Assembly (NCBI GenBank): GCA_964406405.1
Contig: CAYORN010000003.1
Location: 146,689-178,688, forward strand
Origin: an uncultured Alphaproteobacteria bacterium
GTDB taxonomy: Bacteria; Electryoneota; RPQS01
Direction of reading: 5' to 3'
Length of the DNA: 32,000 bases
The notes under the pieces are model-generated. The model ran no database searches. It saw only the letters and a program-made list of their open reading frames with translations, and was not told the DNA's origin. Positions 5,795-24,660 of this stretch are shown here, one piece after another. Position 1 is the stretch's first letter, and the number at the start of each line of letters is the position of its first letter. The translations under genes were made by a program, and so were the position numbers.

Positions 5795-8700
5795 CTATGG
5801 CCACAATTCTGCTAGGTCTCGTGGCACGACAGTTGCAAAGACATCTAAGCCATCCCCCTTCCCAACTATGAATGAAGACTCCAACGCACGATTAAGAGAT
5901 TCCCACAGCACCGTTTGTTCCGCACTCAATTTCCCCTTCGTTCGTTGCAAGATCGGCATCAGGCTCCAGCGGATATTGATGGCCGGAGCATAGAGGGGCT
6001 TGACCGCAAGTAGTGACAGCACTTGCCCGCTAAACAGATCGGCGGGCTCTCTGGCGAGAAAAGCCGTCAGAATTCTCAAGAGGAGAATGCGGCCGCTAAG
6101 CAGATCATGCGATGCCTGATTGAACTCCCAACCAGTCTTGAGCGCGGCTTTGGCCAAGTCATAATCTCCATTCATGAGTAACGCCGCACCAAGCGCTTGA
6201 TATCGGTGGGCCATTTTGTGGGAATTCAACGGAACCTCGAGTGACTGGTATCCGTTAGCTTCTTGAAACTCGTTGATGGCACGCGGATACTCGCTGGCAG
6301 AGAGCGAGTTCACCCCAATGTTACTTAAGTATAAAGCCATTCTCGAACTGTCCCGCCCGTAACACTCCTCCGCAGTCCGCCTAGCATCTTTCAGAATCTC
6401 GCGTGCAGCTACGATCTCTCCACGATCCTCGATTATCCGTGCGAGAATGATCAAGACAGTCGCCTCAATGGGGCGATTTCTTATGTCCCATCCCTTGGCG
6501 TATGAACAGGCATTCCGAATTAAAAGTTCTGCTTCCTCGTCCTCGTGTCGATTACGAAGCGCTTCGGCAAGTGTAGCAGTGTCTTGGCATACCGTCGGGT
6601 GTGATTCACCTAAGCGATTGCGGCCGGACATCACAGCGCGTCTGAACAAACTGATGGCGTCATCAAGACGGCACATATCTTGATAGACCAAACCAAGGTT
6701 GATCTGACTAAGCGCAATCTCGTCACTATCCTCAACAAAGAGCTCTTGCGCCCGTCGCAGTGCATTTTCTAAGACAGGCGCGGCGTCATCGAGACGGCAC
6801 GTTGCCCGATATAAGCAGCCCAAATTCGTCGCAGTTTCCCATTGCAACCGAGCATTGGCATCACTATTCTTACAAATACTCCGGATGGAGAGTAGATGTC
6901 GTTCTGCTGCTCCCATGTTTCCCAAATGCAGGTTGTTGACGGCGATAAGATTGTGACACGACGTCACCGGGACATTAGGTCCACTCCGATCTTCACTCAG
7001 CGCTCGCAGTGTATGAGATGCCATCTGCAAAGCACTACTGTATTGTCCTACTTGTGTGAGAGCGGAACTTGTCTTCAACGCAAGGGACTGACCGAACGGA
7101 CGATTGTGAGTTAATGAGTGCTTAGATGCAGCCACCAGCGATTCAAGTTCCCATTCTGGGAATCCAAATAGAATTGAAGTGTCACATAAGAGTGCGCGAT
7201 TTATCAAATAGGAACTCATACGATAACTTACCGATAGCGACTGCGACCGAGTCGCATCAAGAATAGTCTCTTGAACCATACGGTGCATGCGGGTCAGCCG
7301 GGGCGTGCGATGATCATCTTCGAAATCCCCGATTTGTAGCAGTCGAAGGCTCAATAGATTGTTGACTAACAGCAACCACGGATCCTCATAGCCAGGGGGA
7401 GCGTCTTGACCTAACTTAGGAAAGTCTTCAGTAACAAGTGTCCGTAACCATGGAAGCGGAATGCTGTCGGGTGGCAATAATGCGGCGTAAGACAGCGTAA
7501 GCAGCTCATCTTGCCCAAGTAGAGCAAGCGTTGGCGCCAAAGTAGCTGATATTAGTCTTTCGCCATGCCTGATGCCGGTCTTGGTTGCCCTGGCCATTCC
7601 CTCCAATCCGGGCAGCCCTTCACGTCGCAGCCGCTCAAGCAACGCGGAGCACGTGATACTTCCAGTGCGTTCGCCGAGATGAATGGCCACTACCTCGATA
7701 GCGAGGGTGAATCCTCCAAGAAGTGCAGCGATCTCAAATGCCGCTGTACGCTCGGTTTCATCCGAGAAGTGCTCGCCGGGTTGGTAGCTCTCAATGAGTC
7801 TCAAGGCGTCCGTAGGGGGCAGTTCGTCCACGCAAAGCAGCGCGTGTTGATTGGGATCAAGTCCAATGTCGTCGGCACCCAAACGTGTAGTGGCCAGTAC
7901 GCGTAACCAGTGTTTGCCGGTCAGGATATCGGATTGTGGCGGTTTGAGCAATTCAGGTGAATCTACGTTGTCGAGCATCAGCAAGACCATAGGTTCAGGT
8001 GGGTGCTTATCACCGGAATGCGTGTCAGCTCCTCGAATCGCGCGCCGTTCCAGTTCCGCTAAGATGCGTTTGGCAGATCGCAGATCGTCTTTCTTCTCAT
8101 CCTCTGTCAAAGTTACGCCCAAATCAGACTCGAGCTTACGAAGTGCGGAGAGCAGGCAGGATTCACCTGCGCAACCGATCAGCCAGCGGCCGCCGGGATA
8201 AAAGTCGGCGTAGGCGTATGCATACTGGATAGCAAGGGAAGTCTTCCCTAACCCACCCAGACCTTGGAGAGCTGTCACAATGCCGAACTTGCCCAAGCCA
8301 ACTGCTTCATGAAGACGCCTCATCTCATCTTCGCGTCCTACAAACCGGGGGTTATGTGCGGGCAAGTTGCCTTGTGCCGCCGTAATCCGACGTAATCTAG
8401 ATAGCTTGGTGTGAAGCGAGTGCTCAAGGTCTTCAAGTCTCTTGCGAACATCTAAGCGCCGGAGCGCACCAACGCCCTCACTGTACCACGGGCGAAGGTC
8501 AAAGTAATTCCGCCGTCGCACGCTCTTCATCCAAGCCGATGCGTGCTGGTCGAAGTCCGGCGCATTAAGGCCGGGAATCTCAACGAAATAGATCGGTGCA
8601 ACGCCCTGTCCCTGTGCGGCTCGTGATTGCTCATACTTGAGATACTCGACAACTTCCCATTCGCAGTAATTGCTCACAAGGTAGTTAGGAGACAGGATGA

Positions 8701-8905
8701 TTAGCAAGATGTTCGACTGACGGAGACCCTCGAGAATACGATGCCGCCAGTCGTCCATGCCGTCAATGTCTTCAATATCGAAGAAACAGCGGAGGTTCTC
8801 ACACGCAAATTCGCGGTAGTCAGCTTCGATCTGCTGCTTGAATTCTGTGATACGTCCCGTTGTGTTGTCGCGTCGCGAATAGGAAATAAAAAGGTCGTAC
8901 GCCAT
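5795..8905 (-). CDS. TIR - NB-ARC/STAND NTPase - TPR protein (bacterial TNL-like NLR)
   Basis: N-terminus YDLFISYSRRD...ILLIILSPNYLVSNYCEWEVVE is a TIR domain that keeps the conserved Glu region. FVGREDEMRRL...GLGGLGKTSLA is the P-loop (about 8240-8263). MVLLMLDNVD is Walker B. The C-terminal roughly 450 aa are TPR-like helical repeats. The track ORF starts at TTG 8932. I prefer ATG 8905, which has GAGGAG upstream. Confidence 0.9.
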   Translation of the reverse strand: MAYDLFISYSRRDNTTGRITEFKQQIEADYREFACENLRCFFDIEDIDGMDDWRHRILEGLRQSNILLIILSPNYLVSNYCEWEVVEYLKYEQSRAAQGQGVAPIYFVEIPGLNAPDFDQHASAWMKSVRRRNYFDLRPWYSEGVGALRRLDVRKRLEDLEHSLHTKLSRLRRITAAQGNLPAHNPRFVGREDEMRRLHEAVGLGKFGIVTALQGLGGLGKTSLAIQYAYAYADFYPGGRWLIGCAGESCLLSALRKLESDLGVTLTEDEKKDDLRSAKRILAELERRAIRGADTHSGDKHPPEPMVLLMLDNVDSPELLKPPQSDILTGKHWLRVLATTRLGADDIGLDPNQHALLCVDELPPTDALRLIESYQPGEHFSDETERTAAFEIAALLGGFTLAIEVVAIHLGERTGSITCSALLERLRREGLPGLEGMARATKTGIRHGERLISATLAPTLALLGQDELLTLSYAALLPPDSIPLPWLRTLVTEDFPKLGQDAPPGYEDPWLLLVNNLLSLRLLQIGDFEDDHRTPRLTRMHRMVQETILDATRSQSLSVSYRMSSYLINRALLCDTSILFGFPEWELESLVAASKHSLTHNRPFGQSLALKTSSALTQVGQYSSALQMASHTLRALSEDRSGPNVPVTSCHNLIAVNNLHLGNMGAAERHLLSIRSICKNSDANARLQWETATNLGCLYRATCRLDDAAPVLENALRRAQELFVEDSDEIALSQINLGLVYQDMCRLDDAISLFRRAVMSGRNRLGESHPTVCQDTATLAEALRNRHEDEEAELLIRNACSYAKGWDIRNRPIEATVLIILARIIEDRGEIVAAREILKDARRTAEECYGRDSSRMALYLSNIGVNSLSASEYPRAINEFQEANGYQSLEVPLNSHKMAHRYQALGAALLMNGDYDLAKAALKTGWEFNQASHDLLSGRILLLRILTAFLAREPADLFSGQVLSLLAVKPLYAPAINIRWSLMPILQRTKGKLSAEQTVLWESLNRALESSFIVGKGDGLDVFATVVPRDLAELWP

Positions 8906-9027
8906 TAAGGCAAGACTCCTCTTTGGAGACAACGCTAGCGTAGCGAAGTGAAGATCTTAAGCATCGGGAAATACCCGATGCGCGAGTCGAAGGATTATTC
9001 TGCAGTAACTAATGGCGGACAGCGCCT

Positions 9028-11667
9028 TCAAATCCCGAGCCTCTGCACTGAATAACCCGCCCGAGCAAGAATCTCAGGAATGCCCGCCACCAGATCCCGG
9101 TCGATCTGTTTGATGTTCTCGGGAAGCTCTTCCCATTCTACTAAAAACTCGTTCTGCTCTGAATTGTCCTTCGATGGCTTTCCCCGCGTAAAGCCTGTTA
9201 TGAGCTTGGCTTCCATCCATAGCGCGTGCTCTTGTCGCGCCATGGTCTCAACTTCGTTCATCGAGAACTTGTAGACCGACTGATCTCCACGGGCTGGCAT
9301 CATGACAAGACCAATGGCTGCCAGTTTCTGTGGAATGGATTGAACGTTAACGCGGTTCGACTCTTTGGCCCATTCAGGAAGCTGATTGTATGGAATCAGC
9401 AGCGGATTCGTTTTCTTTTCCTCGCTCTTTTCCTCGCCAAATATGAAACCGTCAAGGCGTTTGCTTTCACAATAAGCTTCATGGGCTGCTTCAGCCAGCT
9501 TTTCAAGGATCTCCGGTGTTAACATGATTGCTTGAACCAATGACAAAAATTCCATTCCATTGACGTGTAGATTCAATTGCGCTTCGCCGGGTAGACACGA
9601 TCGCTCGAACTGAGTCTTGCCAACAAGTTGACTCATGTCGATAATTGCTTCCATGGAGCGCGCGCCATGTTTGTACTCGCGGACGTGCAGAAAAGCGTTC
9701 AACACACCGGGATCAATATTCACAGTACGTCGCCCGCTCTTACTTGCGATGATCTGCGGTGTCAGCCGTTCAAACATAGAGCGGAGCAGAATGGCGCGGC
9801 GGGTCACGAAATACGGATCGGAAGACCCATCCATCCCGGTTGGATTCGGTCCCATGACTTGAATACAGCCCTTCAAGCGGCTGATAAAGTCCGGTCCCTT
9901 GACTTCACGGAACACATCGTGACTTGCCAAGGTCTTTCCGAATGACTCGAAGGACTCGCTGGTCCCTCCAGCAAACACGAAGATGGCCTGGCCGATCGGA
10001 TGAGTAGTCGGCCCCTGTTGAAAGGCCCCGTCCTGCATCGGAGCTAGAAAATAGCGTAGCCAACCCAATGGCTGTCCCTGAAAGGTCGTATCAAATTCAT
10101 CAAAGAACACCAGGGGAATGTATCCCAGAAGTGCTTCATCGCGGACCTGGTGGAAGGCATTGTGAAGAGCTTCTACGTCGTCAAACTGCGACAAGTTGAA
10201 TTCCAGCTTTTTGATGAGACCTGGAAAGATCGACTTGGCCATTTCGGTGACACCGAAGGACTTGCCCGATCCGGGAGCACCAAATACCGCTATCGATAGC
10301 GGCCGCTTCTGACGATCCTTACCACAATATTCCGTCATCAGTACACGGATGCTGTGATAGTTCTCGATTTCTCGACGGTCAATCGTGGTAAGATTTCCGA
10401 AACGTGCGATCGGCACATTCTTGAGGGTATCGCCTATGCCTTTCAGCACTATATTCCGTGCAATTGAACTTAATGCGCCGCGATTGACGTCATCAAGAAT
10501 AGTCCAGTATTGGTTCGGTGAGGAATTGCCGGCATCCTGCGAACGAATCATGAAGTGAGCCGGATCCGGAACTTTCACGGATGCAAACTCTTCCACGGAC
10601 TTCCCGATTTCGGCGGCGACTGCAGCGAGTGGGAACGCTAACTGGACATCAGAACTACCCGTCGTTCGATCTCCATACCCTTCCAGGTGCAGTCTGCGCA
10701 TCGCGGCGATACCGCTCTGAATTGCAGCTGATAGGTTCGGGCTGGCTGGCGATGTCATCAATTGATACACGATGCTTGCGGTCATGCACGTTTTGTACCC
10801 CACCATGCCGCCTGGGTATGTGCTCGACCACATGCCTTCCATGGTTTGCCCGTCGAAAAAGATCCGCACCTGTCTATTAGTCAGTAACGCGGCGCCGGCC
10901 GTTCCTATGGAGACGACAATATGAGCGCACTGGGCTAGCGAATTTATGCAGGGATTGTAAACGAGTTCCCAGGCGAGGTCTTGCACTGTCCGTTCCCACG
11001 ACAAGCCGCGACTGATTTGGACTTCTGTCCCTCGCAGATCGTCGATGTTCATGACGACAATTAGGCGATCTGCCCAATGCTGCTGCAAGAACTCCCACAA
11101 CTGTCCTTGCGCAACCGGGCGCGACATTTTCACGACAATCCAGGGGGATTTGCGTGCCGTATCTCGCTTCAAGTGTGACCAGAGTTCAGGATGGTCGCGG
11201 AAACCCAGATCGGCATCATCAAACACGATAATCTCTGCTTTGACTATGTCGGTCAGCGAGCGTTTGGCCAGTTCGACCCAGCCACCGTCACTTCGGTCCA
11301 ACCCGGCAAACTCAGATACCCGCCAGGCGAGCTGTTCTTTGCTTCCCTTGATGTCGTACGGGAACTGCTTCCACAGCGCATAGGAATGATGACACCGGCG
11401 GTCGGCAGGATTGACAAGAAGATCGGCATCAGCGAATTTTCGGATCTCGTACTTACTTGCCCGATTATCCTGGACCTGTTCGGCGAGTTCTTCGATCAAA
11501 TTCCCCAACAAAGCCGCACCACCGCGTTGCCGGCAGGCGCGCGTGCCCGCTTCCGCCGTCCAAGAGTGGCTGACGCTTTCGTTTCTCTGAAGCCGCGCAA
11601 TGTTCCAGTCAATCGTCAGGTCGCCAGAGACCACGACCACTTTCTTTGGTTCATCTATCGTATGCAA
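9028..11667 (-). CDS. Three-part protein: PfkB/ribokinase-like N-terminal domain (tentative) - classical AAA+ ATPase - two RyR domains
   Basis: TTG start at 11667 with AAGGAG (11674-11679) 6 nt upstream. N-terminal KKVVVVSGDLTIDW, RQRGGAALLGNLIEELA and HIVVSIGTAGAALL resemble PfkB-fold motifs, but the GAGD catalytic motif is absent. VFGAPGSGKS is Walker A (about 10258-10281). LVFFDEFD is Walker B. LAPMQDG and IFVFAGGTS are AAA-like. The C-terminus has two repeats of the RyR-domain pattern (AEAAHEAYCESKRLDGFIFGEEK...NPLLIPYNQLPEWAKESNR and ARQEHALWMEAKLITGFTRGK...FLVEWEELPENIKQIDRDLV). Confidence 0.85.
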   Translation of the reverse strand: MHTIDEPKKVVVVSGDLTIDWNIARLQRNESVSHSWTAEAGTRACRQRGGAALLGNLIEELAEQVQDNRASKYEIRKFADADLLVNPADRRCHHSYALWKQFPYDIKGSKEQLAWRVSEFAGLDRSDGGWVELAKRSLTDIVKAEIIVFDDADLGFRDHPELWSHLKRDTARKSPWIVVKMSRPVAQGQLWEFLQQHWADRLIVVMNIDDLRGTEVQISRGLSWERTVQDLAWELVYNPCINSLAQCAHIVVSIGTAGAALLTNRQVRIFFDGQTMEGMWSSTYPGGMVGYKTCMTASIVYQLMTSPASPNLSAAIQSGIAAMRRLHLEGYGDRTTGSSDVQLAFPLAAVAAEIGKSVEEFASVKVPDPAHFMIRSQDAGNSSPNQYWTILDDVNRGALSSIARNIVLKGIGDTLKNVPIARFGNLTTIDRREIENYHSIRVLMTEYCGKDRQKRPLSIAVFGAPGSGKSFGVTEMAKSIFPGLIKKLEFNLSQFDDVEALHNAFHQVRDEALLGYIPLVFFDEFDTTFQGQPLGWLRYFLAPMQDGAFQQGPTTHPIGQAIFVFAGGTSESFESFGKTLASHDVFREVKGPDFISRLKGCIQVMGPNPTGMDGSSDPYFVTRRAILLRSMFERLTPQIIASKSGRRTVNIDPGVLNAFLHVREYKHGARSMEAIIDMSQLVGKTQFERSCLPGEAQLNLHVNGMEFLSLVQAIMLTPEILEKLAEAAHEAYCESKRLDGFIFGEEKSEEKKTNPLLIPYNQLPEWAKESNRVNVQSIPQKLAAIGLVMMPARGDQSVYKFSMNEVETMARQEHALWMEAKLITGFTRGKPSKDNSEQNEFLVEWEELPENIKQIDRDLVAGIPEILARAGYSVQRLGI

Positions 11668-11796
11668 TTACTACTCCTTTCACGGGTGGGATTGATCAAG
11701 GTCAGGAATTAGTATTGGTCACGTTGGCGAATCCAAGCCCTCATCGCACCCTCGCGACAGATACGAACGATAAGGATCTTGCTTTTCAATGTTGTA

Positions 11797-14700
11797 TCAA
11801 GGTGTCTCGTTTCTCGATTTCACATGGTCGAGAATCTTCTTTGTCTCTTCGGCCAAACCGATCAACCCATGGTGTATCGCCATTTCATATGCAGACTCTG
11901 CGAGCTTCTGCGCCTCGCCGCCCTGGTTCCGCTCCATTAGTATCTCCGCCTGATTTCCCAAGCTAAACGTCAAACCCTCTGGATTCCCAAGTTCTTGGCA
12001 CAATCGCTCCTGTTCCTTTAGTAAAGTCATAGCGCCATCCAGATCGCCACGGGCATACAGGATCAACGCTTGATTTCCTAGGCAGCTCTGCAAACCGTCC
12101 TTGTTCGCCAAATCCCGGCAGAGCTGCTCCTCTTCCTCGTGCAGCGCCATCGCCCCGCTTAGATCGCCCCGGGTTCGAAGGATCTCTGACTGGTTGCCAA
12201 GGCTTCGCGACAGGCTGAGCTTGTCGCCGAGTTCCCGGCAGAGTCGCTCCTGGTCCTGGAGCAAAGCCATCGCGCTATCCAGTTCGCCACGCGCATATTG
12301 GATCAGCCCTTGATTGCCTAAGCATGCTTGCAGGCTATCGCGTTTGCCCAATTCTCGAAAGATTTTTTCATTCTCCCTGCATAACACCATCGCATCGTCC
12401 AGATTCCCCTGTCGCATGAGGATCAGCGCTTGATTTTCCAGACATGCCGAAAGTTCATACTTGTTGCCCAGTTCTCGGCATAGGTGCTCTGTCTCCTTCA
12501 ATAGTGCCACAGCAGCGTCCAAATCGTTCCACATCCAGAGGATCACCGCTTGATTTTTCAGGACCGCTAACAGGATATCCTTGTCGCCTGATTCCCTGCC
12601 GAAGCGCTCTTGCTCTCTAAGCGACGCCATTGCACCTTCCAGATCACCATGGATCAGAAGGATTATCGCTTGATTGCCTAGGATTCGCGACAGGCTGAGA
12701 TTATCGCCCGCTTCCCGACAGAGACACTCACTCTCCTTGTACAGGGTCATTGCTCCGTCCAGATCGCCCCGAGTTTGAAGGATCATCGCTTGATTGTTTA
12801 GACTTGCCTGAAGACTGTTCTTGTTGCCCACTTCCCGGCAGAGGCGTTCACTTTCCTTGTATAGTGCAATCGCCCTGTCAAGATCGTCTTGAGTCTGAAA
12901 GATCGCCGCTAGATTGACCAGGCATGCCGAAAGGTTAACTATATCATCGGTGCTCCGGAAATGCTCCACCAAATCGGCACGAAGTCTCAGCGCTTCGTCA
13001 ACATACCCTGCGTCTGCGAGAAGACTCGACACTGGAAGGAGATATGAAAAATGGGTGTCGGCCACGAGATCACCGTAGGCATTGGCCATTCGTAGAGTGG
13101 AATTCTCCTCAATTCGCGTCCAGTACGCCCTTACCTCCCACTGATTGTCTTTCCAAGCCACACTGAAGAACTCCAACTTTGCCAGCAGATCGTAAAGCCG
13201 ACTCCATTCCTTCGCTTCTGCAAGTTGCCATGGCAATTCTTCCACCTTGTGGTCGGTAAGTTCGCGATTCATGAAGTAGTCGGCAATCTTCAGGTGGATG
13301 GAACGTTCATGCACAGGAGTGGGCAGGTACGCGGCGCGCACGGCCTCGCGTAGGAAATCATGGAAAAATCCGAGCAAGCCGGATCTCGAGACCAGCGAAT
13401 CACTCGCTGCAAGATAAAGCGGTGACCAAGCCGCTCGTGGCAAAGGCTGCCCGTTGGATCCTAACATGTCCAGCAATTCAGACTCCGAAAGACCACGCCG
13501 CGCCGCCCAGAGAAGTGACATGACGTCGCCTACGAGATTGGTATCTCCTTCGTAGTCCTCTTCCCAGCGGGCCAAGATTTTTCCGTAAAGTTCCGGAACT
13601 GTGTTAGCCGCAAGGTAATACCCGATGCGTTCATCGAGCCGCTCATGCATTCCAAATACACGCAGCTCTTCGAGCAGTGCACGCAAATAGAGCGGATTGG
13701 CGGTTTGCTTCGCGTCGGCAATGCGCGTTGCTCGTTCAGGGCTAAGGGCCTTTGTGTATTGTGCCAGATACTTTAGAATGAATTCCTGGCGCTCGTCGGC
13801 ATTAAGAGGTTCGACCTTCATTACCGGCCAGTCGCGCTTCATTAAATCATCTAACGACCGACCCGGCAATGTGGATACCACAAGCCTGATGTTTGCCGGA
13901 ATCACCGGCGGCAACCAAACCAAGTCAGGTGCTTGATCGCGATCTTCCAATTGGTTCAAAGCATCCAGAATCAGAACCACCTTTCCCCGCGCTGCCGTCA
14001 TGTGCAGCCAGTTGGCAAACGCAGAGCGTAACTCGTCAGGCTTGTCGGGGATCTCCTGCGTGATTCCAAACCGCCGCTTGAACTCGCCCATGATCCGCCG
14101 CAACATGGCTGACCAGTCGGTGCTACTCGATGATGCGCCGACAAAGTGCAGGATTATCAGATCGTCGGGATGTTGTTTGCGATGATGTTCAGCCCAGTTC
14201 GCCAGCAACGCTGATTTGCCTGATCCGGATTCGCCCAGCACAATGAGCGACTGACCATCTCCGTCAGCATGTTCATCGAGGCGCTGAAAATACTTGTCTC
14301 CGCCAATGTATACGCGGCGGCGGCTATCCGCAAAGGCTTCATGCTCGGCCGCTTCACGATCCAGCGGATCCGTGATCGGGGCGTCCGGATACAGGTTATC
14401 AATGAGCGCCTGCATGTCCCGCAGCACCAACTGACCAAAGGCCTTCGGATCCGGGTAGTTCTCTGCGACCGAAAAGCACTTTTTGCGAATGCGTTGCTTC
14501 AGTGCGGCCAGCTTTTCGTGCCGCTCTGCGGAGCGCTGTTCTGCTTCATCGCGTCCCCATCGCGTGATCTCCTCTTCGGTCGGCGCGTCCCGAAACATCG
14601 CTTGCCTGTCCGCCGGCAGCATATCTATGTACCTCGCATCACGAAAATAGAAAAAGGCGTGTTCCGCCATTTCCGGGTTGAGTAGCACTCCATGCAGAAT

Positions 14701-15081
14701 CTCAAGTTCGGTGACCGAGTGATTGTGGTGTTCCGCCAACCATTTTTCCTGCTCAATCAATTCTGCCGAAATCTTCTCGGGTATCCACCCGTATCGTTCC
14801 CCCAGGACACCGATGAAATACGGCCGGCAACGCTTGATCTCTTCCAGGCAAATGGGCAACACCTTGCCTTCGGCCTTCTGCTCGTCGGTCACACCCCAGC
14901 GCAGATCTACTTCACCCCAGGTTACCTGCCGTTGCTCGCAAAGCTTTCGCAGTTCAGGGAATACAAATTTGACTAATTCATCGCGCTCCGCGTACATATC
15001 CGCAAACGTGGACGACACAAAGACGCGGACGACGCGTTCGGTACTACCTGTCTGGGATCTTGGATGTTGTATGGCTGTCAT
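11797..15081 (-). CDS. DUF4062-like N-terminal domain - STAND P-loop NTPase - TPR array
   Basis: VRVFVSSTFADMYAERDEL...PYFIGVLGERYGWIP matches the DUF4062 pattern. LIVLGESGSGKSALLANW is the P-loop (about 14212-14235). VVLILDALNQLED is Walker B. The C-terminus carries nine very regular 40-aa TPR-like units. Confidence 0.9.
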   Translation of the reverse strand: MTAIQHPRSQTGSTERVVRVFVSSTFADMYAERDELVKFVFPELRKLCEQRQVTWGEVDLRWGVTDEQKAEGKVLPICLEEIKRCRPYFIGVLGERYGWIPEKISAELIEQEKWLAEHHNHSVTELEILHGVLLNPEMAEHAFFYFRDARYIDMLPADRQAMFRDAPTEEEITRWGRDEAEQRSAERHEKLAALKQRIRKKCFSVAENYPDPKAFGQLVLRDMQALIDNLYPDAPITDPLDREAAEHEAFADSRRRVYIGGDKYFQRLDEHADGDGQSLIVLGESGSGKSALLANWAEHHRKQHPDDLIILHFVGASSSSTDWSAMLRRIMGEFKRRFGITQEIPDKPDELRSAFANWLHMTAARGKVVLILDALNQLEDRDQAPDLVWLPPVIPANIRLVVSTLPGRSLDDLMKRDWPVMKVEPLNADERQEFILKYLAQYTKALSPERATRIADAKQTANPLYLRALLEELRVFGMHERLDERIGYYLAANTVPELYGKILARWEEDYEGDTNLVGDVMSLLWAARRGLSESELLDMLGSNGQPLPRAAWSPLYLAASDSLVSRSGLLGFFHDFLREAVRAAYLPTPVHERSIHLKIADYFMNRELTDHKVEELPWQLAEAKEWSRLYDLLAKLEFFSVAWKDNQWEVRAYWTRIEENSTLRMANAYGDLVADTHFSYLLPVSSLLADAGYVDEALRLRADLVEHFRSTDDIVNLSACLVNLAAIFQTQDDLDRAIALYKESERLCREVGNKNSLQASLNNQAMILQTRGDLDGAMTLYKESECLCREAGDNLSLSRILGNQAIILLIHGDLEGAMASLREQERFGRESGDKDILLAVLKNQAVILWMWNDLDAAVALLKETEHLCRELGNKYELSACLENQALILMRQGNLDDAMVLCRENEKIFRELGKRDSLQACLGNQGLIQYARGELDSAMALLQDQERLCRELGDKLSLSRSLGNQSEILRTRGDLSGAMALHEEEEQLCRDLANKDGLQSCLGNQALILYARGDLDGAMTLLKEQERLCQELGNPEGLTFSLGNQAEILMERNQGGEAQKLAESAYEMAIHHGLIGLAEETKKILDHVKSRNETP
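11884..12963 (-). repeat. Nine tandem 120-nt (40-aa) coding repeats in the TPR array of the STAND protein
   Basis: Units start at 12963, 12843, 12723 ... 12003 on the minus strand. The consensus is roughly LCRELG[DN]K.SL...LGNQA.IL..RGDLDGAM.L.KE.ER. Confidence 0.8.
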
Positions 15082-15094
15082 GAGTTGCGAAAGC

Positions 15095-16789
15095 TCACGC
15101 CGGCTGTTTCACGTTTAAGAACCTTACCAGCCCGCGCCAGTCCTGGGATTCGGTCAGCACGATATTGTCTACCCGGCGCACGATGCTTTCGAACTCCTCA
15201 ACCGATGCCGTTTCGACGGTAGAAGCGATCGCCTGCAATTGGTCCGACATGTCTTCACTTCGGGCAGCCAACCGTTCATACTCCCGATGGCTGCGGAACC
15301 AAATAATGGCTGCACCCAGCGAAGGCAGGATTAGGGCGGAGAGAACGGCGAACCTCCCCAAGTAATCAACACTAGGCCACAAGATGAAGCTGAAGATATG
15401 CGCCAAAGCAGCGAGCATCGTCGCATAGAAGAGGGTGCTGCCGATAACCTCAAACCGACGATCGAGAATTGTGCGCTCGTCGGCACGCTTGAGATGCCAT
15501 CGTCGTTGGTCGCGCACCCAGACATTGGCAATGAACGCGCGCTTGGCGTCGAGTTCAGTGCCCAAAGCTGGTGGCGGGGTGTTCAATTTGCGGATGATAC
15601 AATTGAATACGCAGGCCGTCCAATCGCACCTCGCTTCAAAACCTGTTAATGCTGTGTCCTGTTTCAGCGGCGACGGTGAAACCCCTACGGCCAGAAGAAA
15701 GGATGCAGCACGAAGCCGCTCGGCGAGAAAGCGCAGCAATATCCATTGGCTATGATGGCCTTTCCTGTGAGATCGTGCTACCAACAGTAAGATTCCAACC
15801 AGGGCCATTGCCTCGAGCGTGAAGAACGCAATGTCCCAACTCGCAACCATAGCACCGAGGGCAACAAACACGATGGCAGCCATCGCGAGCACATAAACTA
15901 AGATGCCGGTCAGTCGATATGAACGTTGGTTTCGTTTGGCGATGGCTGAGGCGATAGCGTAGGCAGGTACGAGCTTTTGTTCCACCTCTTGAATCGATGC
16001 CGCGTTCAGGCCACCCGCTTTGGCCGGATTAAACGGGTTTGTCCACTCAAGTGACCCAGCATGTTCTGGACTGCCCTGATTGTACGACGTCACAAACGTT
16101 TTCATGGCAACATGGCCCGTGCGGTCGTAGCGGCGAAGCCGGTAACGGCGGATCGGGTAGTCACCTCTACTTACGTCAATGAGGTATGTAGGTACGCCAA
16201 GGTCATGTGCAAGATCCAGGATATCTCGTGTGCCGCCGAGTTGACCTGCCCGATGGGGATCGTACAGGGCGATCAGGAAATCGCAATGCCGAAGCACGTA
16301 CTCCCCTGCTTCCCGATACGCGGCATGCCGTAAGTCTCGTTGCTCCTGAGGAGTCTTGGCATCTGCAGCAATGAGACGACCCCGCAAGTAGATCGTAGAT
16401 GTGGGGTCTTTGGGCAGAAAAGCATCGAACTCTCGGCGCGACTCCTCGACAGCATTTAGACGTAGTGGTGCCCCGCGTGCATCCAGCCCAAAGGTGTTTT
16501 CGTAATCCGCTCTCGTCAAGGGAATAACAGCCATTAAGCTTGCATCAGTGTTCCTCAGTACTTCATGCGCAACAATCCGATCGGCACCATCGGCAAGACA
16601 CGAAACCACCTCCCATTGCAAGTGAACTGTCTGTTCAGGATCAATGAGCTTTTGAATGTCCTTGAGTACCGCTCGCACCTGATCGACGAGCTCTTTGTTC
16701 GCGACCAAATCTCGATGCCCTGTGACGCCGACGCGAACTCGAAAGTGAAAACGGCAATCGGGACTGTCATTCTCTTGTGCATCAGACAT
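15095..16789 (-). CDS. SLOG (LOG-like Rossmannoid) domain fused to a SLATT-like 4-TM module (predicted ligand-gated membrane effector)
   Basis: VGVTGHRDL...SCLADGADRIVAHEVL...AYREAGEYVLRHCDFLIALYD...LGGTRDILDLAHDLGVPTYLI is a SLOG/YpsA-like pattern (about 16160-16747). Two hydrophobic hairpins follow (LTGILVYVLAMAAIVFVALGAMV / IAFFTLEAMALVGILLLVA and IGSTLFYATMLAALAHIFSFIL / FAVLSALILPSLGAAIIWF, about 15290-15922). Each hairpin is followed by an amphipathic helix. The track ORF starts at GTG 16834. I prefer ATG 16789, which has AGGAG 8 nt upstream. The stop lies 13 nt before the STAND gene start. Confidence 0.8.
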   Translation of the reverse strand: MSDAQENDSPDCRFHFRVRVGVTGHRDLVANKELVDQVRAVLKDIQKLIDPEQTVHLQWEVVSCLADGADRIVAHEVLRNTDASLMAVIPLTRADYENTFGLDARGAPLRLNAVEESRREFDAFLPKDPTSTIYLRGRLIAADAKTPQEQRDLRHAAYREAGEYVLRHCDFLIALYDPHRAGQLGGTRDILDLAHDLGVPTYLIDVSRGDYPIRRYRLRRYDRTGHVAMKTFVTSYNQGSPEHAGSLEWTNPFNPAKAGGLNAASIQEVEQKLVPAYAIASAIAKRNQRSYRLTGILVYVLAMAAIVFVALGAMVASWDIAFFTLEAMALVGILLLVARSHRKGHHSQWILLRFLAERLRAASFLLAVGVSPSPLKQDTALTGFEARCDWTACVFNCIIRKLNTPPPALGTELDAKRAFIANVWVRDQRRWHLKRADERTILDRRFEVIGSTLFYATMLAALAHIFSFILWPSVDYLGRFAVLSALILPSLGAAIIWFRSHREYERLAARSEDMSDQLQAIASTVETASVEEFESIVRRVDNIVLTESQDWRGLVRFLNVKQPA

Positions 16790-17102
16790 TTGGATCGCTC
16801 CTGTAATTGATGCGTCTCTCTCGAGAACAGTCACCTGTTCGTAACTTGTGAATCTTGATGGTGTCAGTGCTTCATTGTCAATTCTGGGGAAATGCGCTTG
16901 TTCGACATCTTACGACTCCGGTACCTTCGGACCTACCTGACGCAAGATCCGTTCGTCCCACTTGTGATTTACTGGCCATCCCGTAAAACGGATCAATCTG
17001 GTGACTAACCAGTAGCTCTACCTGACAGGCAGTAGTGAGGCGCACCTGTCGTCCTCGCTTCGAAAGTGTACGCAAAGACGTGTAATCTCTCGACGCGGAT
17101 AC

Positions 17103-18176
17103 TTACTTCCCAAAATGCGGCAGAATGCTATCATTGAAATGGAGCTTGGCCTTGAGCTCCGGCGGAGGTGCCACTCTTTCGGATGAAGGAAGGGGAAAGG
17201 GATCAATGTAATCAATCCCCCGTAACTTGAGTGCGAGGCGCCACTCTCTGTCAACCCACTTCGATCGACTAGCTGCTTCTGACCAGAACAGATAGAAAAC
17301 GTCCTGCCGAGGTATCATTTTGAAGAGGACTTCTTCGTAGTGGTCCCCCGATCGCAGACTGAGGACGTCCAAGAACACATTGACGCCCGCCTTCTCCAAT
17401 CCGTGGACCCTTGCCAACACTGCTTCTTGGTCTTCATGTGCATAGGAAGCAAATGCCGAGTGATACCTTTTGTCCCTCACTCGCAACTGTCGCGTATAAA
17501 TAGTCGGTCGGGATCTGATCTTAAGTGCGAAATCAACGCGCGCAATTTCAAGTCCGTTCACATAGAATTGCGCAACTCCGTGTCGGCTTCCACGCTTACA
17601 GTATTTAGGTACGGTGAGCGCAAATGTCGTCTTGCCGCTCTTCCCGTCCCAGACCAAAGGCTTGGCAGGTGGCTCGACGCTCACGCCCTCTATGCGCACA
17701 CTAACATAGAGCACAGCGCCGCGCAGAACACGGGCAGGGCCCTGTGTTATGATTAGCGGCTGCCCACGCACTTCATTGTGTACCATCTCCATCACCTGCG
17801 CACGATATTTCCGAAGGTAGGCCCAGATACTCAGCACGTGCACACCACCCGGCATCAGCACGGAAGGTGTAATTACAGCGAGATGAACGTCGTCAGTAAG
17901 CCGTCCCATACTCGTTTCCGGATGTGAAGCATTATCTCCAACATCGAGTTGGTCGTATGGCTGAGACTCGGTTTTCAGGCCGCCGGCTGTCGAAGTTGCT
18001 TCCGTTGTCGGTTTTGGAGTGGAACGTGAGCGTTTAGCGGGTTTCTCCGCCGATGGTCGAGATTCACGGTCCTTATCGCCATTCTCTTTAGACTTGACCA
18101 TTCCGAGTCCGTTAGCGGGAAACAAGAAGCCGATCAAACGGAAAAGCAGCGATAAGAGTTTCCATAAAGTCCCCAT
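17103..18176 (-). CDS. Membrane-anchored TIR-domain protein (N-terminal hydrophobic anchor, K/S/T/P linker, beta-rich middle domain, C-terminal TIR)
   Basis: AGGAG lies 7 nt upstream of ATG 18176. The N-terminus is LWKLLSLLFRLIGFLFPANGLG followed by a highly basic linker. The C-terminus YHSAFASYAHEDQ...VFLDVLSLRSGD...DVFYLFWSEAASRSKWVDREWRLAL is a TIR_2-like pattern that keeps the conserved Glu. Confidence 0.85.
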   Translation of the reverse strand: MGTLWKLLSLLFRLIGFLFPANGLGMVKSKENGDKDRESRPSAEKPAKRSRSTPKPTTEATSTAGGLKTESQPYDQLDVGDNASHPETSMGRLTDDVHLAVITPSVLMPGGVHVLSIWAYLRKYRAQVMEMVHNEVRGQPLIITQGPARVLRGAVLYVSVRIEGVSVEPPAKPLVWDGKSGKTTFALTVPKYCKRGSRHGVAQFYVNGLEIARVDFALKIRSRPTIYTRQLRVRDKRYHSAFASYAHEDQEAVLARVHGLEKAGVNVFLDVLSLRSGDHYEEVLFKMIPRQDVFYLFWSEAASRSKWVDREWRLALKLRGIDYIDPFPLPSSERVAPPPELKAKLHFNDSILPHFGK

Positions 18177-18659
18177 CTATCTTCTCCTACTTCAGAATAT
18201 TCACATTGGGTTGGAAGGAATCATGCCACAATATCTACTACGCGTTTCACAGGCCCGCTCTGAAAAACGGGATCGAGAGCACAGCTCTCGGGAAAACAGA
18301 TGCACGGGTGACTTTGCCGCGCTATCTCTAACGCCCTTAAGACCTGCTTCGTCAATACTATCTGTTCGTTGCGACGCTCAACAGGTCGGCTCGCTCACAC
18401 CGCCTAATGAGTACATCCGCGTCATGTCCCACTCCAGGGAGAGCTTGGGTCGACCATGAACTTGTTGGCGATAGATACTCTGGATCATATTCACCGCTGA
18501 AAGCGAATTAGGCAAGAGCAAAGAAGCGCCTGTGGCGCAGGTGCCATCGTTATCTTCACGCGCGTTGCGAGAGGGATTAGGTCGTGGTTTAAGTCCCCAA
18601 TAGCAGTGACTGTTCTTGTATCGGTGCTTTGGGGAACTGCAGCATTTAGAGAAACCTAC

Positions 18660-19755
18660 TCACACGTCATCATCGCTGTGAATTTTGTCGCGAATAATGG
18701 CAATGATTGTCTCGAGGTGTCGACGCAGTTCCTCCAAATCATCTGTGTACCTGAATATGCTTTCTGTCCGGAAGTCGAACGGCACAGGCGGCATTGTTCC
18801 ATCATCGGCAGTCCGTCGGAGAAGAATCACAGGTTTGTTTTCAGCATGAGCCATTCCCAGTTCATACATGACGTTAGGGCGATCGCCTGTGGTGTCGGCA
18901 ATTGCTGAAAAAACAGTGCCGTAATCCATCGCGGATTGCTCCCACGACATTGCCTGTTGGTACAACTCGGTCGGTTCGCACCGGGTGCAGTCCGTGGGCG
19001 GCAAGAGCTGGGACGATCGCGTTGTCATATACCGGATCACTGGCTTCTTGAAACGGCATAATTATGAAGCAACTTCTCGTGAAACCTCGCAACAAGCAGC
19101 TACAGACGCGTTTTGCCAGCGCACGAATTTCTGTGTCGCACAGATCCGCGAGCCGAAGCTGTTCGAAGTCGGTGGCTTCAGTATCGGTGATTTCAAACCA
19201 ACTGCAGATTTCGGATCGAACATCCCTCCACGCTTCAGCCGATGAACCACCGCCAAATGGCAAGGGTAGGATAGGGCGCTCTATCGCAAGTGCGACATCC
19301 AGCACGGACCGTGTGCCATGCTCGCCTTCAACCGAGATCACAACATCCGCGGAATGAACCATGCTGAAGCGGCGTGCCTGGGGGGTACGGTGTGAAAGCA
19401 CTTGGATACGACCTTCGTGAAAGCGAACGAGCTTGCTGAAGTCCTTTTCCCGGTCAGGCAGAACAGTCTCAACGCGTTCCTCGGCGGGTATTCCGCTCGA
19501 ACGCAGACCTTCCAGAACTCCGTCAATGATCGTCCAGTCCGCCGTTGGGTGATTGGGCGAGTCAAGCCTCGCTTTCAAGCCACCAGTAACAACAATGAGA
19601 CCGTCTTCAGCGGCCAAGAGTTTTCCGAGTTCCTTCCAGAGAAGGGCGGCATTCACTGACAGGCGACTGTCACCGCTAACAAACAGACGACGGGGATGGA
19701 TTATGGCCTTTATTATGGCGATGATCTTAGTCTGGTGAATGTCGACATTCGCACG
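18660..19755 (-). pseudogene. Decayed SLOG/LOG-like + nucleoside 2-deoxyribosyltransferase-like (TIR-related) fusion gene
   Basis: Track ORFs 18874..19656 and 18660..19040 are two frames of one gene. Frame A has LIVVTGG...RRFSMVHSADVVISVEGEHGTRSVLDVALAIERPILPLPFGGG (LOG/SLOG) and then CFIIMPFQEASDPVYDNAIVPALAAHGLHPVRTD. Frame B continues with VFSAIADTTGDRPNVMYELGMAHAENKPVILL. Removing one base from the A6 run at 18908-18913 joins the two frames (..GLRHCFSAIADTTG..). The frame is also open upstream to 19755 and encodes RRLFVSGDSRLS, the expected first strand, but that stretch has no ATG, GTG or TTG. Confidence 0.7.
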
Positions 19756-19793
19756 TTACCGCAAGTCACAGTCCGGCATTTGCGGGTGTCGCC

Positions 19794-19821
19794 GTCATCT
19801 TCTCTATGCTGGTGATGAATG
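19794..19821 (-). repeat. Dispersed copy A of the island leader motif (consensus TTCATCACCATCATAGCGAAGATGAC on the minus strand)
   Basis: The minus strand reads cattcatcaccagcatagagaagatgac. It lies about 135-165 nt upstream of the SLOG/NDT-like gene. Confidence 0.7.
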
Positions 19822-19897
19822 TGGGTACGCAAATGCACCACCAGAGTCGCTCTTAGCGATCCAAAGCACACTGTGCCGAGCGTGCCGACTAAACACG

Positions 19898-20899
19898 CTA
19901 CGGCCACGCAAGTCTGTCTAGCCAATGCAGAGAGTCGAGAACATCTTCGATAACTGTACCACTGAGACGTTCGAGAACATCCCGTTCCGGCTTCACGTCG
20001 TCAACCGCGTGTTGTCGTGAGCCTGCAACTATCCTGTTATCCACGGAATCGTACAGGCAGAAACCAAGTTCAGCTTTCGCCAAGACCAATGTGGACGTCC
20101 GCTCCGTCTTCGTTTGCGCTGCACCGAACAGAATTCTCCTTACTTTTAGACGTCTCGCAAGCTGAAGTAAAGATTGAGTATCCGCTTTGGCAGATATCAC
20201 ATCCCCGACTTCGCGTCGCTCCGCTTCAATCGTGGTCGGGATGAAGACTCGGTAGCGCTGGCTTCGCAACGCTACACTCCAACCCAATTCCACCGTTCCT
20301 GTCGGGTCATTAGACAGAACCGCAATTGTCCCCCGATCCATGAGAAACTCCCGATAGTAGATCAAGCCCCCGATACCGAGAATGACAACAACGAACAACA
20401 TCGAAACTGCGTTGATAAGCCATTTTCTGACATGGCGTTTCTTGTCAATCCGCTCATCGATTGAACTACTGGATTGCGCTGCGGGGGAAATGCCCAGCTG
20501 TTCTAAGCCTTGTACAATGCGCGGCAGGACTACATCCATGCCTGCCGGTGGAATCGGCAGTGACGTTGACAGCACGAGAGCTTGTCTCCATTCAGGTCTC
20601 CTTTGCTTTAGCTCCTTATACGTCACACCATGAAGCAATGGAATGAAGGGCTTTCCTTCTTCGTAAGCGCGAACGACTTCCGCCGTCACCTGCTGCGAAA
20701 CCAGAGAATGCTCTGAGACGATGAGCACAACTGCTCGAGATTCGTCTATCGATTTTCCAATCTGTACAAGGTAGACTTCCCCCGGCACGTTGTCGCGCTG
20801 GTAATACCACGTCGTGTAGCCGGTCCCCTCAAGTCCCGAGGCAACAACTTGCGCCAATTTGAGGTCAGGCTCACTGTAACTAATGAAGATGTCACACAT
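19898..20899 (-). CDS. TIR - single TM - C-terminal extracytoplasmic domain protein
   Basis: CDIFISYSEPD...AVVLIVSEHSLVSQQVTAEVVRAYEEGKPFIPLL is a TIR_2-like pattern. WLINAVSMLFVVVILGIGGLIYY is the TM segment. It is followed by a roughly 145-aa domain I cannot assign. The start is 2 nt after the stop of the upstream small ORF. Confidence 0.85.
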   Translation of the reverse strand: MCDIFISYSEPDLKLAQVVASGLEGTGYTTWYYQRDNVPGEVYLVQIGKSIDESRAVVLIVSEHSLVSQQVTAEVVRAYEEGKPFIPLLHGVTYKELKQRRPEWRQALVLSTSLPIPPAGMDVVLPRIVQGLEQLGISPAAQSSSSIDERIDKKRHVRKWLINAVSMLFVVVILGIGGLIYYREFLMDRGTIAVLSNDPTGTVELGWSVALRSQRYRVFIPTTIEAERREVGDVISAKADTQSLLQLARRLKVRRILFGAAQTKTERTSTLVLAKAELGFCLYDSVDNRIVAGSRQHAVDDVKPERDVLERLSGTVIEDVLDSLHWLDRLAWP

Positions 20900-20901
20900 G
20901 A

Positions 20902-21087
20902 TTACTCGATGGCCGTGCTTTCTCGACTGCGAAGGATATGATCTCGTCCGGGCTGTAGATCGTCAGACCTATTGGCACACATTCCACAGTGGTTTGGTGG
21001 ACAGATGACGGTGGGCGTCCGATAGCGACATGCAATCTCTGACACCATAATAATGCGTTGCCGCATCGTCGCCGCGCCTACGGTCAT
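20902..21087 (-). CDS. Possible small Cys-containing protein (about 61 aa); may instead be a non-coding leader
   Basis: This is the lower part of track ORF 20902..21288, whose upper part overlaps the preceding gene. From ATG 21087 it reads MTVGAATMRQRIIMVSEIACRYRTPTVICPPNHCGMCANRSDD... The stop is 2 nt before the TIR-TM start, which suggests coupling. There is no clear RBS, and the start lies inside motif copy B. Confidence 0.3.
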   Translation of the reverse strand: MTVGAATMRQRIIMVSEIACRYRTPTVICPPNHCGMCANRSDDLQPGRDHILRSRESTAIE

Positions 21088-21109
21088 CTTCGCTACGATA
21101 GTGATGAGA
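21083..21109 (-). repeat. Dispersed copy B of the island leader motif
   Basis: The minus strand reads tctcatcactatcgtagcgaagatgac. Similarity to the tandem units extends upstream (gcctacgg). Confidence 0.7.
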
Positions 21110-21175
21110 GTAGACTGCATGCGAATAGTTAACGGAGGCTTCGCATGCTGCGCCCTGCCTGCTTCTGAATGTCGG

Positions 21176-21667: not shown

Positions 21668-21710
21668 GGGAATGCTTCCCTTTCTGATGAGTGATGCAGG
21701 GTGTCAACGT

Positions 21711-21737
21711 CGCCATGATGGTGATAGCGATAGCGAA
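21711..21737 (-). repeat. Partial copy C of the island leader motif (core ATCACCATCATgGCGA)
   Basis: The minus strand reads cgctatcgctatcaccatcatggcg. It lies between the pspC-like stop and the pseudo-receiver start. Confidence 0.5.
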
Positions 21738-21950: not shown

Positions 21951-21971
21951 TGGTGATTCCTGGCTTTCGGT

Positions 21972-22300: not shown

Positions 22301-22391
<91 letters not shown>

Positions 22392-22409
22392 GCATGCTTG
22401 GGAATCTTG

Positions 22410-22438: not shown

Positions 22439-22459
22439 GCCCGCCCCTGAAAACAGTCA

Positions 22460-24651: not shown

Positions 24652-24660
24652 GTCCTGTAT

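Follow-up and report, generated by a model that had tools for sequence, protein, structure and literature searches.

A TIR-rich gene island with a SLOG-SLATT membrane protein as candidate effector of Thoeris-like signalling, and its link to host RyR-domain proteins

It is proposed, with a probability of roughly 55%, that the block from about 5.8 to 20.9 kilobases (kb) of a 32,000-nucleotide (nt) stretch of DNA from an uncultured Alphaproteobacteria bacterium (GTDB lineage Bacteria; Electryoneota; RPQS01) is a co-directional, multi-gene TIR-signalling (Thoeris-like) defence island beside a tRNA-Lys gene, with a SLOG-SLATT protein as its pore effector. The whole stretch (assembly GCA_964406405.1, contig CAYORN010000003.1, positions 146,689 to 178,688) is called the window here. 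Phage infection would activate at least one of three Glu-containing TIR proteins (17103-18176, 19898-20899 and 5795-8932), and the active TIR would turn NAD+ into an ADP-ribose-derived second messenger, presumably by cyclising it rather than only hydrolysing it. The messenger would then bind the cytoplasmic YpsA-like SLOG domain of 15095-16789, and binding would rearrange or oligomerise the two SLATT hairpins, so that the inner membrane is permeabilised and the infection aborted. The RyR-domain protein 9028-11667 may read this messenger as well, whether as co-effector or as a sponge or hydrolase that sets the threshold, and the DUF4062-NACHT-TPR STAND protein is a candidate infection sensor. 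The open reading frame (ORF) list and the annotation of the window give seven head-to-tail genes on the minus strand of this block, which are listed together with the tRNA gene:

22318..22391, minus strand: tRNA-Lys(CTT) (ARAGORN and Rfam)
19898..20899, minus strand: TIR protein, 333 amino acids (aa) (Pfam TIR_2, 1.4e-17)
18660..19656, minus strand: SLOG LDcluster4-type gene fused to a nucleoside-deoxyribosyltransferase (NDT)/TIR-like domain, split by a frameshift
17103..18176, minus strand: TIR protein, 357 aa (Pfam TIR_2, 1e-13)
15095..16789, minus strand: SLOG-SLATT gene for the candidate effector, 564 aa from its ATG (ORF and AlphaFold2 (AF2) model)
11797..15081, minus strand: STAND NTPase DUF4062-NACHT-TPR, 1094 aa (Pfam)
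9028..11667, minus strand: RyR-domain protein, 879 aa (Pfam RyR, 2.5e-21)
5795..8932, minus strand: TIR - NB-ARC-like STAND - TPR protein, 1045 aa (NCBIfam FxsC_Nterm and FxSxx_TPR; PADLOC ThsB-like)

The candidate effector begins at an ATG with AGGAG 8 nt upstream, and the identical protein P0001 has been called at 564 aa; an alternative GTG start at 16834 would add 15 aa to give 579 aa. Its whole-protein AF2 model has a predicted local distance difference test (pLDDT) score of 87.8, and the chain divides into three parts, the last two each with a pair of transmembrane (TM) helices:

16142..16747, minus strand: cytoplasmic SLOG domain of the YpsA-like clade, residues 15-216 (AF2 and Foldseek)
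15689..16003, minus strand: first SLATT unit, residues 263-367, TM1 at 296-314 and TM2 at 320-338 (NCBIfam/Pfam, hydropathy and model helices)
15116..15553, minus strand: second SLATT unit, residues 413-558, TM3 at 452-470 and TM4 at 480-498 (Pfam and hydropathy)

A first-pass annotation made from the letters alone had described the output of this protein as a 4-TM SLATT-like module, and had placed both its gene and the TIR gene 17103-18176 at the right coordinates and on the right strand. The SLATT description is borne out by the family models, since separate SLATT_1 matches lie above the cut-offs in NCBIfam (residues 297-396, 46.3 bits against 41) and in Pfam (residues 440-566, 29.6 bits against a curated 26.3, E=7.8e-7), which indicates two SLATT units; Pfam DUF4231 also matches at residues 294-380. 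The four hydrophobic helices form two hairpins with short, uncharged loops, and their flanks are K/R-rich, so that by the positive-inside rule the N-terminal SLOG domain is cytoplasmic.

The SLOG call itself, for which structure prediction had been named as the decisive check, also held. The AF2 model of residues 1-223 has a pLDDT of 87, and its best Foldseek match is YpsA of B. subtilis (2nx2; E=1.1e-6, probability 1.0, TM-score 0.67), followed by LOG proteins (probability 0.94-0.98); on this model the N-terminal domain of 15095-16789 is predicted to have the SLOG fold and to fall within the YpsA-like clade. YpsA is the founding member of a SLOG clade that has the signature GxD/E and has been linked to NAD/ADP-ribose ligands (PMC6459960; PMC9503650). 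An alignment of 43 sequences of the family shows the invariant motifs G21-VTGHR-26, G68-A69-D70 (the GxD) and G185-G186-T187. Family members match only the DprA (6e-6), cpYpsA (2e-4), YAcAr, YpsA and Nuc_deoxyrib_tr models, while the SLOG domain of the window taken alone has no Pfam match; a search of the PDB with the SLOG-SLATT sequence and with a profile of the N-terminal domain gave nothing significant, YpsA reaching only E=0.26. A whole-protein Foldseek search of the PDB was uninformative, the long SLATT helices dominating it (ABC-transporter matches, E>0.01).

The SLOG-2xSLATT family is large, with at least 6123 clusters at 50% identity (E<=1e-30), and its phyla include Acidobacteriota, Chloroflexota, Actinomycetota, Ignavibacteriota and Desulfobacterota. 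Gene fusions of TIR, SLOG and SLATT were sought among its longer members, and no TIR match was present in their N-terminal extensions. Some family members (P0257, P0261, P0273, P0302, P0324, P0336, P0344 and P0351) carry an extra N-terminal extension of 170-330 residues that has no Pfam match and matches the family profile a second time; it may be a duplicated SLOG domain.

The gene neighbourhoods of this family support the Thoeris-like reading at the family level. Eighty loci with relatives were surveyed, one genome per species, of which 69 have a full SLOG-SLATT gene (in distinct GTDB species) and 11 a SLOG-only gene; their ORFs were annotated with profiles built in this analysis, and the flanks reach 8 kb. 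A TIR gene lies within 8 kb of the SLOG-SLATT gene in 46 of the 69 loci and within 3 kb in 42, and 19 of the 69 have a same-strand TIR gene within 300 nt. The 53 TIR genes fall off steeply with distance, 32 of them being within 1 kb (27 co-directional) and none beyond 5 kb, which corresponds to a density of 2.4 per 10 kb in the first kb and zero past 5 kb. Overlaps or gaps of a few nt between the TIR gene and the SLOG-SLATT gene are found in Acidobacteriota, Chloroflexota, Actinomycetota and others (L006, L012, L021, L023, L029, L036, L037 and L081). The order in the metagenomic locus L006 is TIR, TIR, SLOG-SLATT, TIR and SLATT, with a 5-nt gap; locus L008 of an Ignavibacteriota genome reads RyR-AAA, TIR, SLOG-SLATT and DUF4062-STAND; and L088, found by way of a protein 44% identical to the TIR protein 17103-18176, has the gene set of the window (STAND, NDT-like, TIR, TIR, SLOG-SLATT and RyR-AAA). 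The alternative that TIR and SLOG-SLATT genes are phylogenetically independent is refuted at the family level by the 46 of 69 loci and the distance decay. Family-level genomic context gives good support to the idea that a TIR protein may make a signal which the SLOG-SLATT protein would read. Another kind of partner, seen in L072 (4035-6422), is a TIR fusion with a PNP_UDP_1 phosphorylase domain, encoded 23 nt upstream of the SLOG-SLATT gene.

The TIR gene next to the candidate effector in the window is 17103-18176, which has AGGAG 7 nt before M1 and encodes three parts:

18111-18173, minus strand: N-terminal amphipathic/hydrophobic helix (hydropathy), followed by a basic linker
17481-17894, minus strand: conserved middle domain, residues 95-232 (homolog conservation)
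17130-17468, minus strand: TIR domain, with Glu311

The Pfam model TIR_2 hits residues 242-317 at E=1e-13 and 52.3 bits (cut-off 28), and the conserved Glu region SKWVDREW is intact as had been noted from the sequence; its Glu is E311, and of 70 aligned TIR domains of related loci 67 have Glu in that column. The N-terminal hydrophobic anchor that was read into this protein fared less well: the segment exists (residues 2-22), but it is borderline, with a mean Kyte-Doolittle value of about 1.5-1.67, a hydrophobic moment of 0.45-0.48 and K6 and R13 inside it, so that a TM anchor is uncertain and the segment could be an amphipathic in-plane helix instead. Likewise the linker, said to be very basic, is basic (10 K/R against 5 D/E over 30 residues) but not extremely so. 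Homologs keep residues ~95-357, that is the middle domain and the TIR domain, and their N-termini are not conserved. The middle domain, ~140 residues without known fold, always precedes the TIR domain (proteins P0122-P0240), and upstream of it the N-termini are swapped among FHA, kinase, VWA, HSP70, PKD, LRR, sigma-70 r4, receiver and SLATT/DUF4231 domains; in P0189 and P0191 a SLATT domain is thus fused in front of the middle domain and the TIR domain.

The gap between 17103-18176 and the SLOG-SLATT gene measures 313 nt to the ATG and 268 nt to the GTG, on the same strand and exactly as first described. The other two TIR proteins of the island are placed as follows:

20582-20899, minus strand: N-terminal TIR domain of 19898-20899, with Glu74
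Residues 162-186 of 19898-20899: one clear TM helix (hydropathy), followed by a C-terminal domain without known fold
8525-8905, minus strand: TIR domain of 5795-8932, with Glu93 (TIR hidden Markov model)

Both have closer relatives beside SLOG-SLATT genes elsewhere than 17103-18176 has. Relatives of the 19898-20899 TIR domain (E 1e-29 to 1e-41) occur in the SLOG-SLATT loci L014, L018 and L021 and in the SLOG-only locus L064, one of them lying 36 nt from the effector gene; L022 encodes a full-length homolog of the TIR-STAND protein 5795-8932, at a distance of 608 nt upstream of the SLOG-SLATT gene. These relatives, together with the 313-nt gap and the mostly solitary clade of 17103-18176 described below, make its specific pairing with the effector weaker than the family-level link, and a role as the cognate generator is not supported; the TIR proteins of the island are therefore taken collectively as candidate generators. 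The Thoeris-like logic of the first-pass annotation is thus supported as family-level context, and more weakly as the pairing of these two genes.

Several observations weigh against the proposed signalling island. The enrichment was judged without matched random genes as a control, the background rate of TIR genes being taken from general knowledge and from the distance decay within the loci. The homolog closest to the SLOG-SLATT protein (P0002, 49% identity, in L001) has no TIR gene within 10 kb, none of the genes around P0004 (31% identity) is an evident partner, and 14 of the 69 loci are without a TIR, RyR or STAND gene within 8 kb. Of six sampled contexts of relatives of 17103-18176, five are solitary and only L088 has a SLOG-SLATT gene. 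The 313-nt gap has no promoter-like or terminator-like site, Rfam family or unusual folding (z=-0.39), so that the two genes may or may not share a transcript.

It is unlikely, though not to be neglected, that these genes simply share an island without signalling to one another, the TIR proteins being self-contained NAD+-depleting effectors with sensor parts of their own (the middle domain in 17103-18176, the TM helix and C-terminal domain in 19898-20899, NB-ARC-TPR in 5795-8932) and the SLOG-SLATT protein a separate system, perhaps driven by the STAND protein. The module of middle domain and TIR domain does occur with many N-termini, mostly alone and in non-defence surroundings, and TIR-STAND fusions such as 5795-8932 were excluded from the signalling sets of the 2025 Thoeris survey as likely NADase effectors (10.64898/2025.12.03.692087, section 5). 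The SLOG-SLATT gene is also coupled much more tightly to the downstream STAND gene, which starts 13 nt after its stop codon, than to 17103-18176. DUF4062-STAND homologs adjoin SLOG or SLOG-SLATT genes in L008, L015, L050, L071 and L088, but they are present in only 3 of the 69 SLOG-SLATT loci and so are not a core partner. Mere co-residence leaves unexplained both the steep distance decay of the TIR genes and the overlaps and few-nt gaps in many phyla, and a ligand-sensing SLOG domain requires a source of ligand. DUF4062 was considered as a TIR-like domain, and hhalign aligned it to a TIR profile at E=0.027 over the first strand only; the STAND protein is not claimed as a TIR-type generator.

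A second family of proteins accompanies these loci. The gene 9028-11667 encodes a protein of three regions:

Residues 1-420: N-terminal domain (N-domain)
Residues 421-690: AAA+ ATPase
Residues 694-878 (window 9034-9588): tandem RyR/Repeat12-like region

Pfam RyR (PF02026) matches the protein in two stretches at the E-value listed above, and the RyR region matches animal ryanodine receptor Repeat12 (R12) domains in the PDB at E~1e-18. The HxxW/Y pair is kept in both repeats (AHEAY and EHALW), its His being at least 80% conserved in 31 host homologs, and both repeats carry Asn where the phosphate-binding His ('HP') would stand. The 420-aa N-domain has no Pfam or PDB sequence match and shows the invariant motifs GD..D, GG and DD..GFR across RyR-AAA proteins. 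In more than 12 loci of unrelated genomes a full-length homolog (850-950 aa) is encoded directly beside a SLOG or SLOG-SLATT gene, the RyR-AAA loci being L008, L017, L020, L031, L039, L055, L061, L063, L064, L071, L073, L083 and L088; in L073 a MAP3K_TRAF_bd/TPR-S protein (9798-11132) lies between the SLOG-SLATT and RyR-AAA genes. RyR-domain proteins of any architecture are present in 18 of the 69 SLOG-SLATT loci, in 13 of these within 1 kb, and adjoin 7 of the 11 SLOG-only genes. Three architectures were found: the N-domain-AAA+-RyR type of the window, a RelA_SpoT-TPR-RyR type, and a type with 2 TM helices and a pore-helix-like segment followed by TrkA_N/RCK and RyR (2TM-RCK-RyR). RelA_SpoT-TPR-RyR genes adjoin SLOG-SLATT genes in L001 (12060-14471) and L021 (4205-6700). 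The 2TM-RCK-RyR proteins (570-730 aa, without a canonical TVGYG filter) lie beside SLOG or SLOG-SLATT genes at these positions and are putative ion channels carrying an RyR domain:

L016, 5862-7757
L028, 9795-11879
L042, 8241-10109
L044, 9789-11840
L045, 9773-11743, minus strand
L063, 7672-9504
L086, 8637-10358

RyR-domain proteins of phages bind 3'cADPR, 2'cADPR and cADPR (cyclic ADP-ribose, ADPR being ADP-ribose) at nanomolar to sub-micromolar affinity, one of them hydrolyses 2'cADPR and 3'cADPR, and the HxxW pair contacts the ligand (PMC13232231; 10.64898/2026.06.04.730250). The RyR association is circumstantial but independent evidence that a cADPR-type molecule is the currency of these loci. 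We tentatively suggest, at odds below even, that host RyR proteins belong, as an integral third component, to a large class of TIR signalling, so far undescribed and built around SLOG-2xSLATT proteins, in which the RyR domain would be a sensor of a cADPR isomer or a built-in sponge or hydrolase. Host RyR proteins beside TIR or SLOG genes are mentioned neither in the two 2026 preprints on phage RyR proteins nor in the 2025 Thoeris survey or the Aravind-group papers examined. The protein 9028-11667 resembles the phage proteins RyDEP and RyR-Tad, which hydrolyse or sponge 2'/3'cADPR and cADPR, in that it belongs to the same PF02026 family and keeps the HxxW/Y pair; it differs in that it is encoded by a host, has a length of 879 aa and joins the RyR region to an AAA+ ATPase and a 420-aa domain, and in lying inside a TIR/SLOG-SLATT island instead of a phage anti-defence locus.

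The same neighbours could be read in another way, less probable still than mere co-residence, namely that the SLOG-SLATT and RyR proteins read a nucleotide that comes from another source, such as a RelA/SpoT-type pyrophosphokinase or an NDT/SLOG-type enzyme, with the TIR proteins as accessories. In L001 the closest SLOG-SLATT homolog has no conserved neighbour except a RelA_SpoT-TPR-RyR gene, and L021 has such a gene as well; seven SLOG-SLATT loci have an RyR gene and no TIR gene within 8 kb (11 of the 18 with RyR have both); 7 of the 11 SLOG-only genes pair with RyR-AAA genes, and none with an adjacent TIR gene; and NDT-like genes turn up repeatedly, in L073, L083 and L088 as well as in the window (18660-19040). 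The TIR gene is nevertheless by far the commonest neighbour (46 of 69 loci, against 18 of 69 for RyR), RyR domains have so far been known to bind TIR products only (PMC13232231; 10.64898/2026.06.04.730250), and RelA/SpoT stands in the output position of an RyR-sensor protein and is therefore more likely an effector than a generator. That the SLOG domain instead works enzymatically, as a LOG-like N-glycosidase or by degrading a signal, and that SLATT-like helices tether it to the membrane for a housekeeping or regulatory task, is very improbable. In its favour, LOG enzymes are among the structural matches, viral YpsA-like SLOG proteins have been proposed to degrade cADPR signals (PMC9503650) and some loci have no partner genes. 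Against it, the family does not conserve the Glu of the LOG catalytic motif PGGxGTxxE, of which G185, G186 and T187 alone are invariant or almost so; SLATT recurs as an effector module in CBASS and type VII Thoeris; and the family is embedded in TIR, STAND and RyR contexts.

Compared with known systems, the proposed signalling island is not new in kind. A 2025 survey from the Sorek laboratory defines Thoeris types I-XI (bioRxiv 10.64898/2025.12.03.692087), and generic features of Thoeris are present in the window, which has TIR proteins with the catalytic Glu and, to judge by architecture, a separate effector that would combine a sensor with a toxic output. Type VII pairs the TIR protein ThsB with a SLATT effector, ThsH, and uses canonical cADPR (Yirmiya et al., 10.64898/2025.12.03.692087). 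The window resembles it in that a SLATT membrane effector adjoins a TIR gene (313 nt upstream, same strand) and in the membrane disruption predicted upon a TIR-made ADPR derivative. ThsH, in contrast, is described only as a SLATT protein with ligand pockets between SLATT protomers, whereas the window effector adds, by that description, a separate YpsA-like SLOG domain and a second SLATT unit in the same chain. A comparison of the type VII TIR sequences with the TIR proteins of the SLOG-SLATT loci yielded no close relative (best E=1.8e-4). The "different effector" of the first-pass annotation is different from SIR2, but a SLATT effector paired with a TIR protein had already been described as type VII.

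Type I Thoeris shares with the window a TIR generator and an effector with a signal-sensing SLOG domain, which in type I senses 3'cADPR (10.64898/2025.12.03.692087). The outputs differ, being a SLATT membrane module in the window and the SIR2 NADase in ThsA; no SIR2 match was found in 15095-16789 with Pfam, NCBIfam or PADLOC. The sensors differ as well, the SLOG domain of the window being YpsA/DprA-like and that of ThsA being ascribed to the STALD type (PMC13276650). ThsA-like sensing, as first proposed, stands as far as the presence of a SLOG domain goes but fails as to its type, and a further point against the proposed signalling island is that a STALD-type Pfam match is absent and that ThsA structures are outside the top 50 Foldseek matches. 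Since the SLOG domain of the window is not of the STALD type, the ligand specificity of ThsA cannot be carried over to it. Type III Thoeris, as far as its description is relayed by the later papers, combines several TIR proteins with an SMF/DprA-type SLOG effector (van den Berg et al. 2024, cited in 10.64898/2025.12.03.692087 and PMC13276650), and to that extent it is like the window, which groups several TIR genes around a single effector whose SLOG domain is DprA/YpsA-like. The matches of the window, however, are far below the family cut-offs, the best NCBIfam match of 17103-18176 being ThcB4 (E=4e-6, 25.9 against 220 bits), and the type III effector models have no match in the set of SLOG-SLATT proteins and SLOG domains; phmmer aligned 17103-18176 with the P. 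aeruginosa L0872 TIR4 at 4.6e-4. Type II Thoeris (TM-Macro, histidine-ADPR (His-ADPR)) and the SLATT/4TM effectors of CBASS also have a cytoplasmic ligand sensor fused to membrane-disrupting TM helices, but in the window the sensor is SLOG and not Macro, SAVED or none, and the candidate generator is TIR and not a CD-NTase.

The survey also lists an effector labelled "SLOG and 4TM", in Ca. Nitrospira nitrosa COMA1 and Streptomyces sp. GKU 895 (10.64898/2025.12.03.692087), so that an effector of this description had likewise been predicted in 2025. Two operons of TIR and "SLOG and 4TM" gave no defence in E. coli (10.64898/2025.12.03.692087, Table S2), which at face value tells against the proposed signalling island. 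By its label this candidate is like the window effector, with a SLOG-annotated soluble domain and four TM helices beside a TIR gene. We retrieved 26 such loci by way of JGI metagenome contigs (L095 and L105 being exact contigs; TIR cluster 2691454909), while a 59%-identity relative of the Ca. Nitrospira nitrosa TIR (L092) was uninformative. The effector in these loci is a protein of 360-400 aa with four closely spaced C-terminal TM helices, encoded upstream of a 461-aa TIR gene. With filters off, the window profiles gave E = 8-40 (SLOG) and 0.5-3 (SLATT) against it, hhalign between the families a probability of 0.1-0.4% and phmmer E>8; the identity of the two is thus ruled out, they are different families, and the negative result in E. 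coli does not bear on the window system. The published class comprises about 8-9 TIR proteins, against the thousands of clusters of the window family. Beside the ~360-aa protein, the "SLOG and 4TM" loci also have a stand-alone DUF4231/SLATT gene (Pfam) and, in some cases, a stand-alone YpsA-like SLOG gene (profile); the loci and positions noted for these genes, the ~360-aa protein included, are:

L095, 2449-2883 and 2951-4033
L118, 3005-4078 and 5414-5953
L097-L102

In these stand-alone SLATT and SLOG genes the fusion of the window is split. The name SLATT goes back to the association of this domain with SMODS and SLOG (Pfam PF18181; Burroughs et al. 2015, cited in PMC7159879 and PMC9503650), and SLATT has been predicted to be a pore regulated by ADPR derivatives (PMC9503650; PMC7159879). 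PADLOC has no model matching the SLOG-SLATT, RyR-AAA or SLOG-LDcluster4 proteins of the window.

The remaining gene of the island, 18660-19656, matches Pfam LDcluster4 (3.3e-6), weakly Nuc_deoxyrib_tr, and the PADLOC "TIR effector" (1.9e-6). It consists of overlapping ORFs of 260 aa (SLOG LDcluster4) and 126 aa (NDT/TIR-like), which a 1-nt shift at a T6 homopolymer (near 18905-18915) would join into ~330 aa; the frameshift is also present in the independent Logan assembly L003, and could be due to a pseudogene, an assembly error or programmed frameshifting.

The block from 5.8 to 20.9 kb looks like a genomic island because of its lower G+C content and the tRNA-Lys(CTT) gene, which is likely its edge on the high-coordinate side. 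In the composition profile G+C is ~0.50-0.56 over 3000-23000 and 0.58-0.62 at both ends of the window; it is also below 0.56 up to 28000, except for 0.594 at 24001-25000. A PspC-domain protein and an orphan receiver-domain protein (21176-22052, minus strand) separate the tRNA-Lys from the first TIR gene. On the plus strand, 3600-5720 holds five small ORFs in a row (93-149 aa, none above 150 aa), two of which (4497-4841 and 4861-5223) share near-identical basic C-terminal tails, PRRSRIKAFL(N/S)(G/R)GLK(E/K)LFR.

Thoeris-type TIR signalling links bacterial, plant and animal immunity, and to our knowledge every further class of Thoeris effector has up to now brought with it a new signal or killing mode. 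The SLOG-2xSLATT family offers a clean test case, a SLOG sensor wired to a putative pore instead of an NADase, and it is large and spread over phyla that are poorly represented in laboratory screens. The frequent extra partners (several TIR proteins, RyR proteins and STAND proteins) suggest that two-gene constructs may be insufficient. The link to host RyR proteins is the more consequential point and the one most worth pursuing. If host RyR proteins are indeed such third components, the phage proteins RyDEP and RyR-Tad would be captured host sensors, and the nucleotide sensing by Repeat12 of the animal ryanodine receptor would descend from bacterial TIR immunity. Host RyR proteins beside TIR and SLOG genes, some of them joined to an RCK/2-TM channel-like module, provide a tractable bacterial system for a long-standing question of calcium signalling, whether Repeat12 senses cADPR-type ligands directly.

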